From: a virus
Taxonomy: Duplodnaviria > Heunggongvirae > Uroviricota > Caudoviricetes
Direction: 5' to 3' (one strand)
DNA: 15,879 nt
IMG/VR virus record: IMGVR_UViG_2872158770_000005
Shown: piece after piece, positions 7,520 to 9,420 of the stretch
Layout: each line of letters starts with the position of its first letter
Position numbering within the stretch: the first letter of the stretch is position 1
Program-made: the position numbers and the translations under genes
Notes under the pieces: model-generated
Databases searched by the model: none
What the model saw: only the letters and a program-made list of their open reading frames with translations
What the model was told of the DNA's origin: nothing

Positions 7520-7945
7520 TCAATGTACTGCCACAGCATTTCCTGCCGGGCCACCACGGTTCATCTGATTGAAACCGGCGATTGCCACTGCGACAAAATC
7601 ATCAGCGTCTCTCACCAGTCGTTCATGCGTCTCCACCAGTTCCCGAAAATAAGCTGAACTGTGGCTGCGCATTCGAGCCACCAGCGGAGGTGGCATTGCC
7701 CTTTCGATCGCAGGTAACAACGCCTGAATTTTTTCAACAGCGTCAGGGGTGTCTTTATCCAGCCAACGGAAAATCTTTTGGGTGTTGAGATAAAGCGTGT
7801 TGTGCTTGCTGTCGTTATGCAGAACCGGAAACGTCATTCCCAGTTCGAAATAAACCCTGGTTATTTCAGCTGCCGGAACTTTTTCACCGTCCGGATGCGC
7901 CCAGGCTTTCATCGCCATGCGGATGTGTTCATGCTTGATTTTCAT
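7520..7945 (-). CDS. YdaT-like prophage protein (Rac-type toxic/regulatory protein)
   Basis: 141-aa ORF starting MKIKHEHI, same size and position as Rac YdaT (recalled); start overlaps the upstream Cro-like stop as ATGA (7942-7945). Confidence 0.6.
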   Translation of the reverse strand: MKIKHEHIRMAMKAWAHPDGEKVPAAEITRVYFELGMTFPVLHNDSKHNTLYLNTQKIFRWLDKDTPDAVEKIQALLPAIERAMPPPLVARMRSHSSAYFRELVETHERLVRDADDFVAVAIAGFNQMNRGGPAGNAVAVH

Positions 7946-8205
7946 GAATCAACCCCCGCCGATGGTTGTGTGTTAGCCTGAAACTCAGCAGGCAAGCCGT
8001 CAGTTGGGTTGGGGTAGGTTTTACTGTCAATCTCATGTGGGGTCACCACCCATCCCGTTGCTTCACACCAACGTAATATTTTTTCTCCTGTAAGTTTTGC
8101 ACGCCCCGTTATAACGTGGCTGACCATCCCTTGGGATGCGCCAACAATCTCAGCAAATGAACTCTGGGTTATATGAAAATGATGCAAATATTCTCCAAGA
8201 TTCAT
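7942..8205 (-). CDS. Cro/YdaS-like HTH DNA-binding protein
   Basis: Helix-turn-helix segment QSSFAEIVGASQGMVSHVITG; divergent from the repressor gene; ATG at 8205 (MNLGEYLHHF...) with SD; track start 8232 is TTG. Confidence 0.65.
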   Translation of the reverse strand: MNLGEYLHHFHITQSSFAEIVGASQGMVSHVITGRAKLTGEKILRWCEATGWVVTPHEIDSKTYPNPTDGLPAEFQANTQPSAGVDS

Positions 8206-8316
8206 AATCCGCCCTATGTGATGTGTTACCAATGCATAATTAATAGCACTGTTATTTTTAAAAGTAAATAGTGATGCTATTTCAAAGTGATTAGCAATCT
8301 TATTAGAATTGGATGT
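8206..8316. promoter_or_regulatory. Divergent promoter/operator region between the Cro-like and CI-like genes (OR-like)
   Basis: Contains near-palindrome AATAGTGATGCTATT (8266-8280), related half-palindrome AATAGCACTGTTATT (8242-8256) and palindrome GATTAGCAATC (8289-8299); possible -35 TTCAAA (8282-8287) and -10 TAGAAT (8305-8310) ending 7 nt before the repressor ATG. Confidence 0.5.
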
Positions 8317-8817
8317 ATGAAAAGAAAATCATTGTCAGACACCGACCTCAACGCCGCCAGAAGACTGAAAGAAATCTGGATGGCAAAGAAATCTCAGTTG
8401 GGATTGACTCAGGAACGTGCGGCGGAAATTATGGGGTTTTCAACACAAGGGGCGGTAAGTCACTACCTAAATGGTCAAACCCCACTAAACCTTGAGGCTG
8501 TTCTAAAGTTTGCTGGCTTACTGAAAGTTCCCCCTGAGTCAATCAGGCCAGACATGGTAGATTTGCTGCAAATTGCAAGGATGTATTGTCGAGAACCACA
8601 GCAAGATAACATAGTCGCATTACCAGCAGACACAGAACAAACAGAGGATGAACTACCGTTTGCCGTAGAGCCGATGGAACGAGATTTAATCCATACGTTC
8701 AGAGCTTTTCCGAAAGAAGATCAAGAACACATGCTTCAGGAGATGAAAGATAAAAAAGAATCAATGGATCGTACGGTTGCGCGGTGGTTAGCTGCACAAA
8801 AAGGCCGTCGCGCCTAA
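8317..8817 (+). CDS. CI-type HTH (XRE family) prophage repressor, RacR/PaaR2-like; no recognisable S24 peptidase domain
   Basis: HTH LGLTQERAAEIMGFSTQGAVSHYLNG; divergent from the Cro-like gene; first gene of the repressor-antitoxin-toxin unit. Start set to ATG 8317 (MKRKSLSDT...) rather than the longer track ORF. Confidence 0.8.
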   Translation: MKRKSLSDTDLNAARRLKEIWMAKKSQLGLTQERAAEIMGFSTQGAVSHYLNGQTPLNLEAVLKFAGLLKVPPESIRPDMVDLLQIARMYCREPQQDNIVALPADTEQTEDELPFAVEPMERDLIHTFRAFPKEDQEHMLQEMKDKKESMDRTVARWLAAQKGRRA

Positions 8818-8836
8818 ATCAGAGGAGATATGTAAA

Positions 8837-9031
8837 ATGAGTACAGTCCTTTCCCCAATGGTTTCAGAATTTGAGACAGTTGAGCAAGAAAATAGTTACA
8901 ACGAATGGCTGCGGGCCAAAGTAGCAGCAAGCCTCGCGGATCCCCGCCCGGCGATTCCGCATGATGAGGTAATGGCGGAAATGGAACAAATTATTGCCCA
9001 AATTGCTGCTGCAACTCACAGAGGTGAATAA
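8837..9031 (+). CDS. Type II antitoxin, PaaA2/ParD-like
   Basis: 64-aa ORF directly upstream of and overlapping (TAATG) a ParE/RelE toxin gene; AGAGGAG SD; sequence matches my recollection of PaaA2. Confidence 0.65.
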   Translation: MSTVLSPMVSEFETVEQENSYNEWLRAKVAASLADPRPAIPHDEVMAEMEQIIAQIAAATHRGE

Positions 9032-9321
9032 TGTTACCCGTTTTATGGCTACCATCTGCTCGTGATGATTTGCGCCAGATCGTAGCCTACATAGCTAAAG
9101 AAAATCCCGCGGCAGCACGCAGAATGAAAATTCGAATTGAAACATCCGTTTTGCCGCTCACAGAGCATCCTTACCTGTATCCTCCAAGCGAGCGAGTTCT
9201 TGGTCTTCGTGAAATTGTAACTCATCCTAACTACATCATCCTTTACCGAGTAACAGCATCAAGCATAGAAGTAGTAAATATTGTGCATTCTCGAAGACAG
9301 TATCCAGGCAAAAACAGTTAA
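9031..9321 (+). CDS. Type II toxin, ParE/RelE superfamily (ParE2-like)
   Basis: 96-aa ORF with the typical ParE/RelE pattern (DDLRQIVAYIAKENPAAARR...LREIV...YIILYRV...IEVVNIVHSRR); GAGGTGA SD; translationally coupled to the antitoxin. Confidence 0.85.
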   Translation: MLPVLWLPSARDDLRQIVAYIAKENPAAARRMKIRIETSVLPLTEHPYLYPPSERVLGLREIVTHPNYIILYRVTASSIEVVNIVHSRRQYPGKNS

Positions 9322-9338
9322 TTATTCCCGCCGACAGA

Positions 9339-9359
9339 ACCACCTTAGGGTGGTTTTTT
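9339..9359 (+). terminator. Rho-independent terminator ending the repressor-antitoxin-toxin unit
   Basis: Perfect 6-bp stem ACCACC/GGTGGT with 4-nt loop TTAG, followed by a T6 run, 18 nt after the toxin stop. Confidence 0.7.
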
Positions 9360-9377
9360 CTTGCCCCAACAAAAAAC

Positions 9378-9420
9378 AATAGCGATGCTATTTACATCAA
9401 AAAAAATAATGATGCTATTG
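9378..9420. promoter_or_regulatory. Two more copies of the 15-bp near-palindrome (OL-like operator candidates)
   Basis: AATAGCGATGCTATT (9378-9392) and AATAATGATGCTATTG (9405-9420), matching AATAGTGATGCTATT at 8266-8280; the copies bracket the immunity block. Confidence 0.45.

Follow-up and report, generated by a model that had tools for sequence, protein, structure and literature searches.

Candidate operators of a lambda-type repressor/Cro switch bracket a repressor–paaA–parE immunity block in a decayed lambdoid prophage

The viral record IMGVR_UViG_2872158770_000005 (Caudoviricetes) is a stretch of 15,879 nt, referred to below as the window, and carries a compact immunity block, in which genes of a repressor and of a Cro-like protein diverge from a common intergenic region and the repressor gene is followed by a PaaA-ParE toxin-antitoxin pair. 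Positions 7700–9700 were inspected directly and pattern searches were added. A short dyad, AATAG-N5-CTATT, recurs in the divergent intergenic region and again past the toxin gene, and it is very probable that these sites are the operators of a lambda-type repressor/Cro switch in a decayed lambdoid prophage. Open reading frames (ORFs) and Pfam matches give the gene order: leftwards from the right operator (OR) the Cro-like gene and a CII-like ydaT, and rightwards the repressor, PaaA, ParE, a terminator, the left operator with its promoter (OL/PL) and ydfA. The components are the following:

7520–7945, minus strand: ydaT-like gene, CII analogue (141 aa; Pfam YdaT_toxin; PDB 8bt1/3c4r at E 1e-70 to 1e-79)
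7942–8205, minus strand: cro-like gene (87 aa; Pfam HTH_3; the same coding sequence is annotated by RefSeq in the E. coli locus L001)
8317–8817, plus strand: repressor gene (166 aa; Pfam HTH_3/HTH_31)
8837–9031, plus strand: paaA antitoxin gene (64 aa; Pfam PaaA2, E=3e-23, a 33-residue domain; PDB 3zbe)
9031–9321, plus strand: parE toxin gene (96 aa; Pfam ParE_toxin, E=2e-17; PDB 5cw7, E=7e-37), whose start shares 1 nt with the paaA stop
9336–9359, plus strand: intrinsic terminator of the repressor-paaA-parE operon (CCACC/GGTGG stem and T6)
9601–9753, plus strand: ydfA (DUF1391)

The terminator was found by direct folding (dG -15.1 kcal/mol, z = -2.96) and is conserved in all alleles; a simple scanner missed it, probably by extending the stem into the T-run. 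Five sites of the dyad surround the repressor operon:

8242–8256: OR1, AATAGCACTGTTATT, degenerate; its position and arms are kept in 19 distinct alleles and in distant loci
8267–8281: OR2, AATAGTGATGCTATT, centred at -43 from the repressor ATG
8290–8304: candidate OR3, ATTAGCAATCTTATT, centred at -20; 9 of 12 specified positions agree, the weakest of the five
9378–9392: OL1, AATAGCGATGCTATT, a perfect 6-3-6 palindrome
9405–9419: OL2, AATAATGATGCTATT, beginning with AATAAT

The initial annotation had described a repeated near-palindrome, placed it in the divergent cro/repressor intergenic region and just 3' of the terminator after parE, and counted four sites, two on each side. The repeat, its placement and the four sites are borne out by the sequence, and so are the coordinates 8242–8256 and 9378–9392; 8266–8280 and 9405–9420, however, have to be moved to the intervals given above, the 9405 site does not begin with AATAGY, and the count becomes three sites at OR and two at OL, with a weak fifth site added. 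The motif as it was then written has six matches in the window at up to three mismatches (0.72 expected), a number that none of 200 shuffles reached, and GATGCTATT is present in three copies where 0.15 are expected. When only the arms are specified (AATAGNNNNNCTATT, at most one mismatch), exactly OR1, OR2, OL1 and OL2 are retrieved (0.34 expected; 0/200 shuffles). Candidate OR3 emerges once the centre is left free, at 13 matches with up to three mismatches against 6.6 expected, and is thus within background by sequence alone; its position is kept in relatives, and an equivalent, ATTAGTAAAACTATT, is found at the same offset in the Salmonella and two-helix-turn-helix (two-HTH) loci described below.

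Near-palindromes in AT-rich DNA may cluster by chance, and many background matches are indeed present in the window at three mismatches. A 2-Mb Markov simulation was used to estimate chance frequencies per 5-Mb genome: single sites with at most one mismatch would occur about 100 times, whereas pairs 22–28 bp apart would occur about 0.015 times, and therefore the pairing, not the lone 15-mer, is the specific feature. The motif was further followed through 50 loci with the window repressor type (271 kb), which comprise four E. coli genomes (L001–L004), 45 IMG/VR prophage contigs and the window. At up to one mismatch, 196 of its 198 matches lie at two fixed positions, OR (-80 to -40 from the repressor ATG) or OL (+1020 to +1110), and the second cluster, overlapping an outward promoter past the repressor operon, is present in all 50. 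Together with the shuffles this effectively refutes chance clustering, the probability of which is negligible.

The sites are interwoven with promoter elements, of which those of PRM (the promoter of the repressor gene) were found by a promoter scan and those of PR (cro side) and PL are predicted by reading the sequence:

8240–8248, minus strand: putative PR extended -10, TGcTATTAA, inside OR1
8263–8268, minus strand: putative PR -35, TTTACT, overlapping the OR2 edge and invariant in alleles
8281–8286, plus strand: PRM -35, TTCAAA, abutting OR2 and invariant in all alleles
8304–8309, plus strand: PRM -10, TAGAAT, ending 7 nt before the ATG and invariant in all alleles
9391–9396, plus strand: putative PL -35, TTTACA, beginning in the last 2 nt of OL1
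9413–9421, plus strand: putative PL extended -10, TGcTATTGT, inside OL2 and conserved in alleles
9399–9406, plus strand: A8 run in the PL spacer; OL1 and OL2 are 27 bp apart and the spacer is 19 nt, against the usual 25 and 17

Both PR and PRM have a 17-nt spacer. The 111-bp intergenic region (8206–8316) thus holds three sites, 25 and 23 bp apart, that overlap the -10 and -35 of PR and the -35 and spacer of PRM, candidate OR3 lying within the latter. PR and PL share their geometry, with a -35 of the form TTTAC(T/A) and TGcTATT.. within operators, so that OL1/OL2 overlap PL as OR2/OR1 overlap PR; in distant loci TTGACA or TTGACT stands at the offset matching the PL -35. Two other promoter-like matches were rejected as chance: one at 8404–8432 (plus strand) is within conserved coding sequence and one at 9433–9406 (minus strand, TTGACG) is absent from homologous OL regions. 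The repressor start has no usable Shine-Dalgarno sequence, and the -10-like hexamer that the initial annotation had noticed 7 nt before the repressor ATG (8317) is the constant TAGAAT of all alleles; it predicts a transcription start at 8316/8317, and hence a repressor mRNA that would be leaderless or carry a 1-nt leader.

The length of the A-run is polymorphic. OL1 and OL2 are 25 bp apart, like OR1 and OR2, in 18 of 22 distinct OL sequences, which gives the 17-nt spacer. Eleven loci with an identical or near-identical repressor carry A5 (one locus), A6 (five), A8 (four, including the window) or A9 (one), and the T-run of the terminator stays T6 in all loci where the A-run varies. The polymorphism could represent promoter decay or tuning by slippage, and some of it could be assembly error; PL may be weakened in the lineage of the window, because the A8 run lengthens both the spacer and the distance between the operators.

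The pattern of conservation within the sites is distinctive. The 50 loci give 19–21 distinct OR and 22 distinct OL sequences. Scans of species-representative genomes with the repressor, as a single sequence or a 4-allele alignment, returned no match, and diversity was drawn from IMG/VR prophage contigs and from contigs carrying the exact proteins. AATA (positions 1–4) and TATT (12–15) are invariant in 27 distinct OR1/OR2/OL1/OL2 sites. The mean entropy of the arm columns (positions 1–5 and 11–15) is 0.054, with 2 of 30 columns variable, compared with 0.17 for columns outside the sites, 0.42 for positions 6 and 10 and 0.45 for the centres. OR2 has 11 distinct variants, all with AATAG and CTATT and with changes at positions 6–10, and its centre is the most variable spot of the whole control region. 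The consensus is AATAG-N5-CTATT, with invariant arms and a free centre, so that specificity would reside in the arms and not in the central GAT; conserved arms around a free centre are the signature of a dimeric helix-turn-helix (HTH) protein that reads two outer half-sites.

The motif can also be followed across immunity types. Two loci of E. coli, L005 (O157:H7 strain F7508) and L006 (prophage CP-933P, recovered via 61 nt rebuilt from published primers), keep the backbone of YdaT, PaaA, ParE and the C-terminal tail of the regulator, while the N-terminal domain of the regulator and Cro are different. At the same positions their OR/OL repeats are different as well (AAAAACTGT..ACAGTTTTT; GTTTAGT..). 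The best match between an OR and an OL 15-mer is 13–15 of 15 positions within an immunity type and 11–12, the background level, across types. The motif thus co-varies with the DNA-binding domain. L005 had been a candidate for CP-933P itself and was rejected, as its regulator is not PaaR2; it is a third paaR-paaA-parE immunity type, with a 133-aa regulator carrying a PaaR-type tail and with a repeat AAAAACTGT...ACAGTTTTTTATTG (OR 3681–3788, OL 4697–4815; 15/15 OR-OL match), and was kept as a control.

More distant contexts are provided by the recognition helix TQGAVSHYLN, which is also present in 153–154-aa proteins of Salmonella, whose tail is divergent and whose genes are followed by HigB/HigA, and in 243–255-aa two-HTH proteins without a toxin-antitoxin pair. 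Both kinds of contig have three upstream sites, 25 and 23–24 bp apart, the last of them some 20 bp from the likely ATG. Past the repressor-side operon they have two more, spaced by 24–25 bp, which overlap TTGAC(A/T) and TATT.. hexamers. Between the repressor and OL, the Salmonella contigs (L056/L057, 3612–4339) encode a HigB toxin and an HTH antitoxin, and in L058/L059 this slot is empty; it behaves as a general site for toxin-antitoxin cargo, like that of rexAB in lambda. The two-HTH repressors (P0072, P0076, P0078 and P0080; L058/L059 3001–3768; 243–255 aa) join the lambda-like domain of the window type, a complete HTH domain of the L005 type and a PaaR-type tail, and are found on dozens of contigs, with AATAG-N5-CTATT at OR and OL. 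A PaaR-type tail is carried behind at least three other HTH domains, even behind two in tandem.

One may ask whether the repeats are anything more than shared promoter sequence, that is, a duplicated or convergent PR and PL in an AT-rich context, with no operator role. The extended -10 does fall within the right arm of OR1 (read on the PR strand) and of OL2, the final 2 nt of OR2 and of OL1 belong to the -35 hexamers as well, and PR and PL of CP-933P have identical -35 and -10 elements (Jurenas et al., 2021; PMC8630535). The left arms AATAG, however, lie outside any hexamer and are nevertheless invariant, and every site has the dyad symmetry to be expected in the target of a dimeric HTH protein, with a centre that varies and arms that do not. 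Moreover, the motif switches wholesale together with the repressor N-terminal domain and Cro, while sigma-70 is constant, and a perfect-arm site is found in the OR of the Stx2 phage F004 despite a different promoter context. Shared promoter sequence is therefore a highly unlikely explanation of the repeats, and the operator reading, which the initial annotation had proposed as operators flanking an immunity region, is in accord with the gene order, the promoter overlap, the conservation of the arms and the co-variation with the DNA-binding domain.

It could also be argued that the sites are bound by the Cro-like protein only, or by the repressor only, and are not shared, as Cro, the repressor N-terminal domain and the motif co-vary in every comparison. 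In lambda, CI and Cro protect overlapping sites, which speaks for shared operators, and a domain homologous to that of lambda CI, with the conserved TQGAVS helix, is present wherever the motif occurs. Footprints on CP-933P likewise show overlapping sites protected by both proteins (Jurenas et al., 2021; PMC8630535). A single binder is thus quite unlikely.

A third proposal would assign the palindromes to the PaaA-ParE complex, since most type II toxin-antitoxin operons are autoregulated via palindromes near the promoter (Jurenas et al., 2021; PMC8630535). Yet the sites precede the repressor gene and follow parE, and do not stand before paaA, the motif also occurs in loci with HigBA or without a toxin-antitoxin pair, and the PaaA of the window matches only the ParE-neutralising PaaA2 family, PaaA2 being devoid of a DNA-binding domain (PMC8630535). 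Classical type II autoregulation is accordingly extremely improbable here.

The remaining and preferred candidates for binding, the repressor and the Cro-like protein acting on common operators, direct attention to the repressor itself. It consists of a lambda-CI-like N-terminal domain (residues 1–91), a disordered linker (92–113) and a PaaR-type two-helix C-terminal module (119–164). Residues 2–81 align with the N-terminal domain of lambda CI, including its Lys-rich basic arm (phmmer to 1lmb, E=3e-9), and the AlphaFold2 model has five confident helices, with a predicted local distance difference test score (pLDDT) of 85–93 over residues 10–90, and two C-terminal helices. The top 11 PDB matches of this model in Foldseek are all lambda CI N-terminal domains (template modelling score 0.81–0.93), including the complex with sigma region 4 (1rio). 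The positive-control positions E34 and D38 of lambda CI correspond to the acidic residues E33 and E37 in the window repressor. An S24/LexA-type C-terminal domain is typical of inducible lambdoid phages, albeit not universal, and is absent from the window repressor, as the Pfam search returned HTH_3/HTH_31 only and no Peptidase_S24 match. The repressor is not SOS-cleavable, and the analogy with lambda ends at induction.

The similarity to PaaR2, the regulator of CP-933P, is confined to the other end of the protein: residues 123–166 align with PaaR2 80–123 (52% identity over 44 aa, E=5e-15), and the N-terminal domains are unrelated by BLAST. By this alignment the window repressor would be a domain-swapped relative of PaaR2 and not its orthologue. 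A search by sequence returned no PDB entry for PaaR2.

CP-933P of E. coli O157:H7 is the best studied relative of the block, and PaaR2, YdaS and YdaT were described there as analogues of CI, Cro and CII (Jurenas et al., 2021; PMC8630535). In the same study PaaR2 and YdaS shifted the 97-bp intergenic region (OR) in electrophoretic mobility shift assays and footprinted it, the paaR2 mRNA was shown to be leaderless by rapid amplification of cDNA 5' ends and N-terminal sequencing, and a PL-like promoter with OL sites past parE2 was repressed about 100-fold by PaaR2 and by YdaS. PaaR2 was found to be an octamer, with no autocleavage (peptidase) motif, and unresponsive to mitomycin C. Later, a YdaT site, TTGATT-N6-AATCAA, was footprinted at the junction of the cro analogue and ydaT (Prolic-Kalinsek et al., 2023; PMC9986795). 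The window shares the gene order and slot usage of CP-933P, with OL/PL and then ydf genes, and its YdaT, PaaA (over 56 aa) and ParE are 77, 75 and 67% identical to the CP-933P proteins. The -10 directly abuts the ATG of the regulator in both, the PL leader is conserved, and both regulators end in ...ARW(L/I)AAQK(G/C)RRA and have no S24 peptidase domain. The exact YdaT site is present at the equivalent junction:

7935–7952: OM-type YdaT recognition site, TTGATTTTCATGAATCAA, at the cro-stop/ydaT-start junction, with zero mismatches to the footprinted sequence; a putative PRE-like control point, after the lambda promoter of repressor establishment (PRE)

The published F-PRE primer for PRE933P, ATGCGGATGTGTTCATGCTT, moreover matches window positions 7918–7937 exactly, so that the ydaT 5' end and the PRE region are near-identical to CP-933P although the adjacent cro is unrelated; the immunity module must therefore have a recombination boundary near the cro stop codon. 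The differences concern the module itself. The CP-933P regulator has 123 aa against 166 in the window, the window Cro-like protein has no detectable similarity to YdaS, and the CP-933P operators are 18-bp palindromes of the GTTTAGTAA type (OR1–3/OL1–3), compared with the AATAG-N5-CTATT 15-mers of the window (3+2 sites). Because the operators are entirely different, the block can be regarded, on sequence grounds, as a heteroimmune, domain-swapped relative of the published CP-933P region.

About 170 nt of non-coding leader between PL and ydfA (9425–9600) are 90–95% conserved across the window type, L005 and CP-933P, and are kept although the neighbouring operators differ completely among the three immunity types; several sequenced phages have the leader too, without annotation. 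It gave no Rfam match at E<=1 and an RNAalifold covariation term of only -0.47, and therefore no claim of RNA structure is made; a role in antitermination, as a nut- or put-like element, can only be guessed at.

In lambda, the OR centres are spaced by 24 and 23 bp, and OR2 and OR3 lie at -42 and -19 from the PRM start. The window resembles lambda closely in this respect, with a tripartite OR of 25/23 spacing and OR2 and OR3 at about -43 and -20, as well as in the CI N-terminal domain, homologous in sequence and fold including the basic arm, and in having cargo genes co-transcribed with the repressor and then OL/PL. It differs from lambda in that the operators are 15 bp, not 17 bp, and of another sequence, only two OL sites are detectable in the window, YdaT, which has a site of its own, stands in for CII, and OL and OR are 1.1 kb apart compared with about 2.4 kb. 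The C-terminal domain is the two-helix PaaR-type module in place of the S24 autopeptidase, and for this reason no RecA-mediated induction is expected.

The Stx2 phage F004 (Oslovirus, LC710661) is a further relative, with a CI N-terminal domain 52% identical to that of the window repressor and a recognition helix starting TQGAVS, a Cro 53% identical, and the perfect-arm site AATAGTCTAGCTATT in its cI-cro intergenic region. Its CI, unlike the window repressor, has 239 aa with the long S24-type C-terminal domain usual in inducible CI proteins, only one strong OR site is detectable with AATAG-N5-CTATT, there is no PaaA/ParE, and it is a complete phage. Megablast of the block against sequenced phages matched the flanks only (ydaT and the PL leader; 30% coverage), and no repressor at >60% identity was found among them. 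The Qin prophage of E. coli K-12 also has a divergent repressor/cro-like pair, dicA-dicC, and a repressed promoter downstream of the repressor that drives ydfA-ydfB-ydfC-(dicF)-dicB; exactly ydfA, ydfB, ydfC and dicB follow OL in L001, the near-identical E. coli locus. Qin differs in its repressor and operators and is not known to carry a toxin-antitoxin cassette in the interval from the repressor to the promoter of the dicB operon.

The existence, enrichment and positions of the sites, their conservation pattern, their co-variation with the DNA-binding domain and the protein homologies were observed in the analysis, and lambda and CP-933P suggest by analogy which proteins would bind, where transcripts would start and how PRM activation and looping might be achieved. 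Dimers of the 166-aa repressor would contact the two 5-bp arms of a site through the lambda-CI-like HTH domain, and the 87-aa Cro-like protein would probably bind these sites too, preferring them in the reverse order. When OR1 and OR2 are occupied, the extended -10 and the -35 of PR would be covered, and cro-ydaT and the replication genes would be off. The repressor bound to OR2, abutting the weak PRM -35, would probably activate its own promoter, while OR3, in the PRM spacer, may serve negative autoregulation or repression by Cro. Transcription from PRM, starting at the ATG or 1 nt before it, would yield a leaderless repressor-paaA-parE mRNA that ends at the 9336–9359 hairpin, with PaaA-ParE as addictive cargo in the rexAB slot. 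Occupation of OL1 and OL2 would keep the PL-like promoter of the ydfA...(dicB/kil/exo/int) operon off. The PaaR-type C-terminal module would probably mediate oligomerisation, and possibly OL-OR looping over 1.1 kb; its presence in place of the lambda S24 domain would make the switch insensitive to RecA. YdaT, acting on its site at 7935–7952, may offer a CII/PRE-like alternative route to repressor synthesis.

Several points weigh against this interpretation. Binding and transcript starts are, for this allele, transferred by analogy from other systems, and octamerisation and looping are extrapolated from PaaR2, with which only 44 C-terminal residues are held in common. The motif, Cro and the N-terminal domain of the repressor are always found together, and sequence therefore cannot tell whether the repressor, Cro or both bind it. 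OR3 is a weak match (9/12), and, as the entire PRM region is invariant, its conservation does not point to an operator in particular. Many of the 50 loci are close relatives and their counts are not independent; independence is provided by about 20 distinct alleles and three distant contexts. The distance from the -10 to the ATG permits a 1-nt leader instead of a strictly leaderless mRNA, and the 19-nt spacer of PL and the 2-bp phase shift of OL in the window may impair PL and cooperative binding at OL.

Exact copies of the repressor and Cro proteins are found on at least 1000 contigs named Shigella sonnei or multispecies Shigella, and the block most likely belongs to a decayed lambdoid (cryptic) prophage of Shigella sonnei. 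L001, which is 98.9% identical, is a lambdoid prophage at tRNA-Ser/mtfA, in which ydfA-ydfB-ydfC-dicB-exo-int follow on the OL side, the other arm carrying Q, lysis genes and tRNAs. In the window replication-type genes lie upstream of ydaT, namely a 356-aa protein and a DnaC/IstB-like ATPase, and insertion sequences (IS) occupy several positions:

1–~770, 10278–~11050 and 12291–~13060, minus strand: three IS1 copies with identical 167-aa InsB ORFs
14723–15541: IS3-family rve transposase

The left operon is interrupted downstream of ydfA, and the immunity block itself is intact. The right arm of the prophage encodes a BsuBI/PstI-type restriction endonuclease (360 aa) and an Eco57I/N6-methylase-like protein (610 aa) at 906–3817 (minus strand). 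Between two of the IS1 copies, Rfam detects isrK (11559–11635, 61 bits) and C4 antisense RNA (11661–11748, 77 bits), within or ahead of a 257-aa ORF (11524–12297, plus strand) with Phage_ASH and Phage_pRha domains; Ash/Rha genes are also downstream of OL in L058/L059. The arrangement is similar to the modules that control antirepressors in P1 (immI) and in Gifsy-1 (isrK-anrP), and could be relevant to the inactivation of a non-cleavable repressor.

A far-reaching reading would see in the S. sonnei element a live, RecA-independent, bistable epigenetic switch, assembled from a portable kit (a lambda-type domain on a PaaR-type tail) and tuned through slippage of the OL A-run. It is unlikely, but if it were true, slippage of the A-run would alter the PL spacer (16–20 nt) and the phasing of the operators, and would thereby set or silence the toxic genes of the left operon by lineage. 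Literature searches returned no description of this allele or of an AATAG-N5-CTATT operator. The architecture is already established in CP-933P and lambda, so that the block adds another specificity and leaves the understanding of such switches unchanged. What is new is a precise operator consensus, with 3+2 sites and promoter assignments, for an uncharacterised immunity type that would control a ParE toxin module; Shigella sonnei is fixed for this type, and about 1% of complete E. coli genomes carry it. Furthermore, the PaaR-type tail emerges as a modular, exchangeable partner for several DNA-binding domains, including two-HTH fusions, and the slot between the repressor and OL holds different toxin-antitoxin families (PaaA/ParE, HigBA) or nothing.

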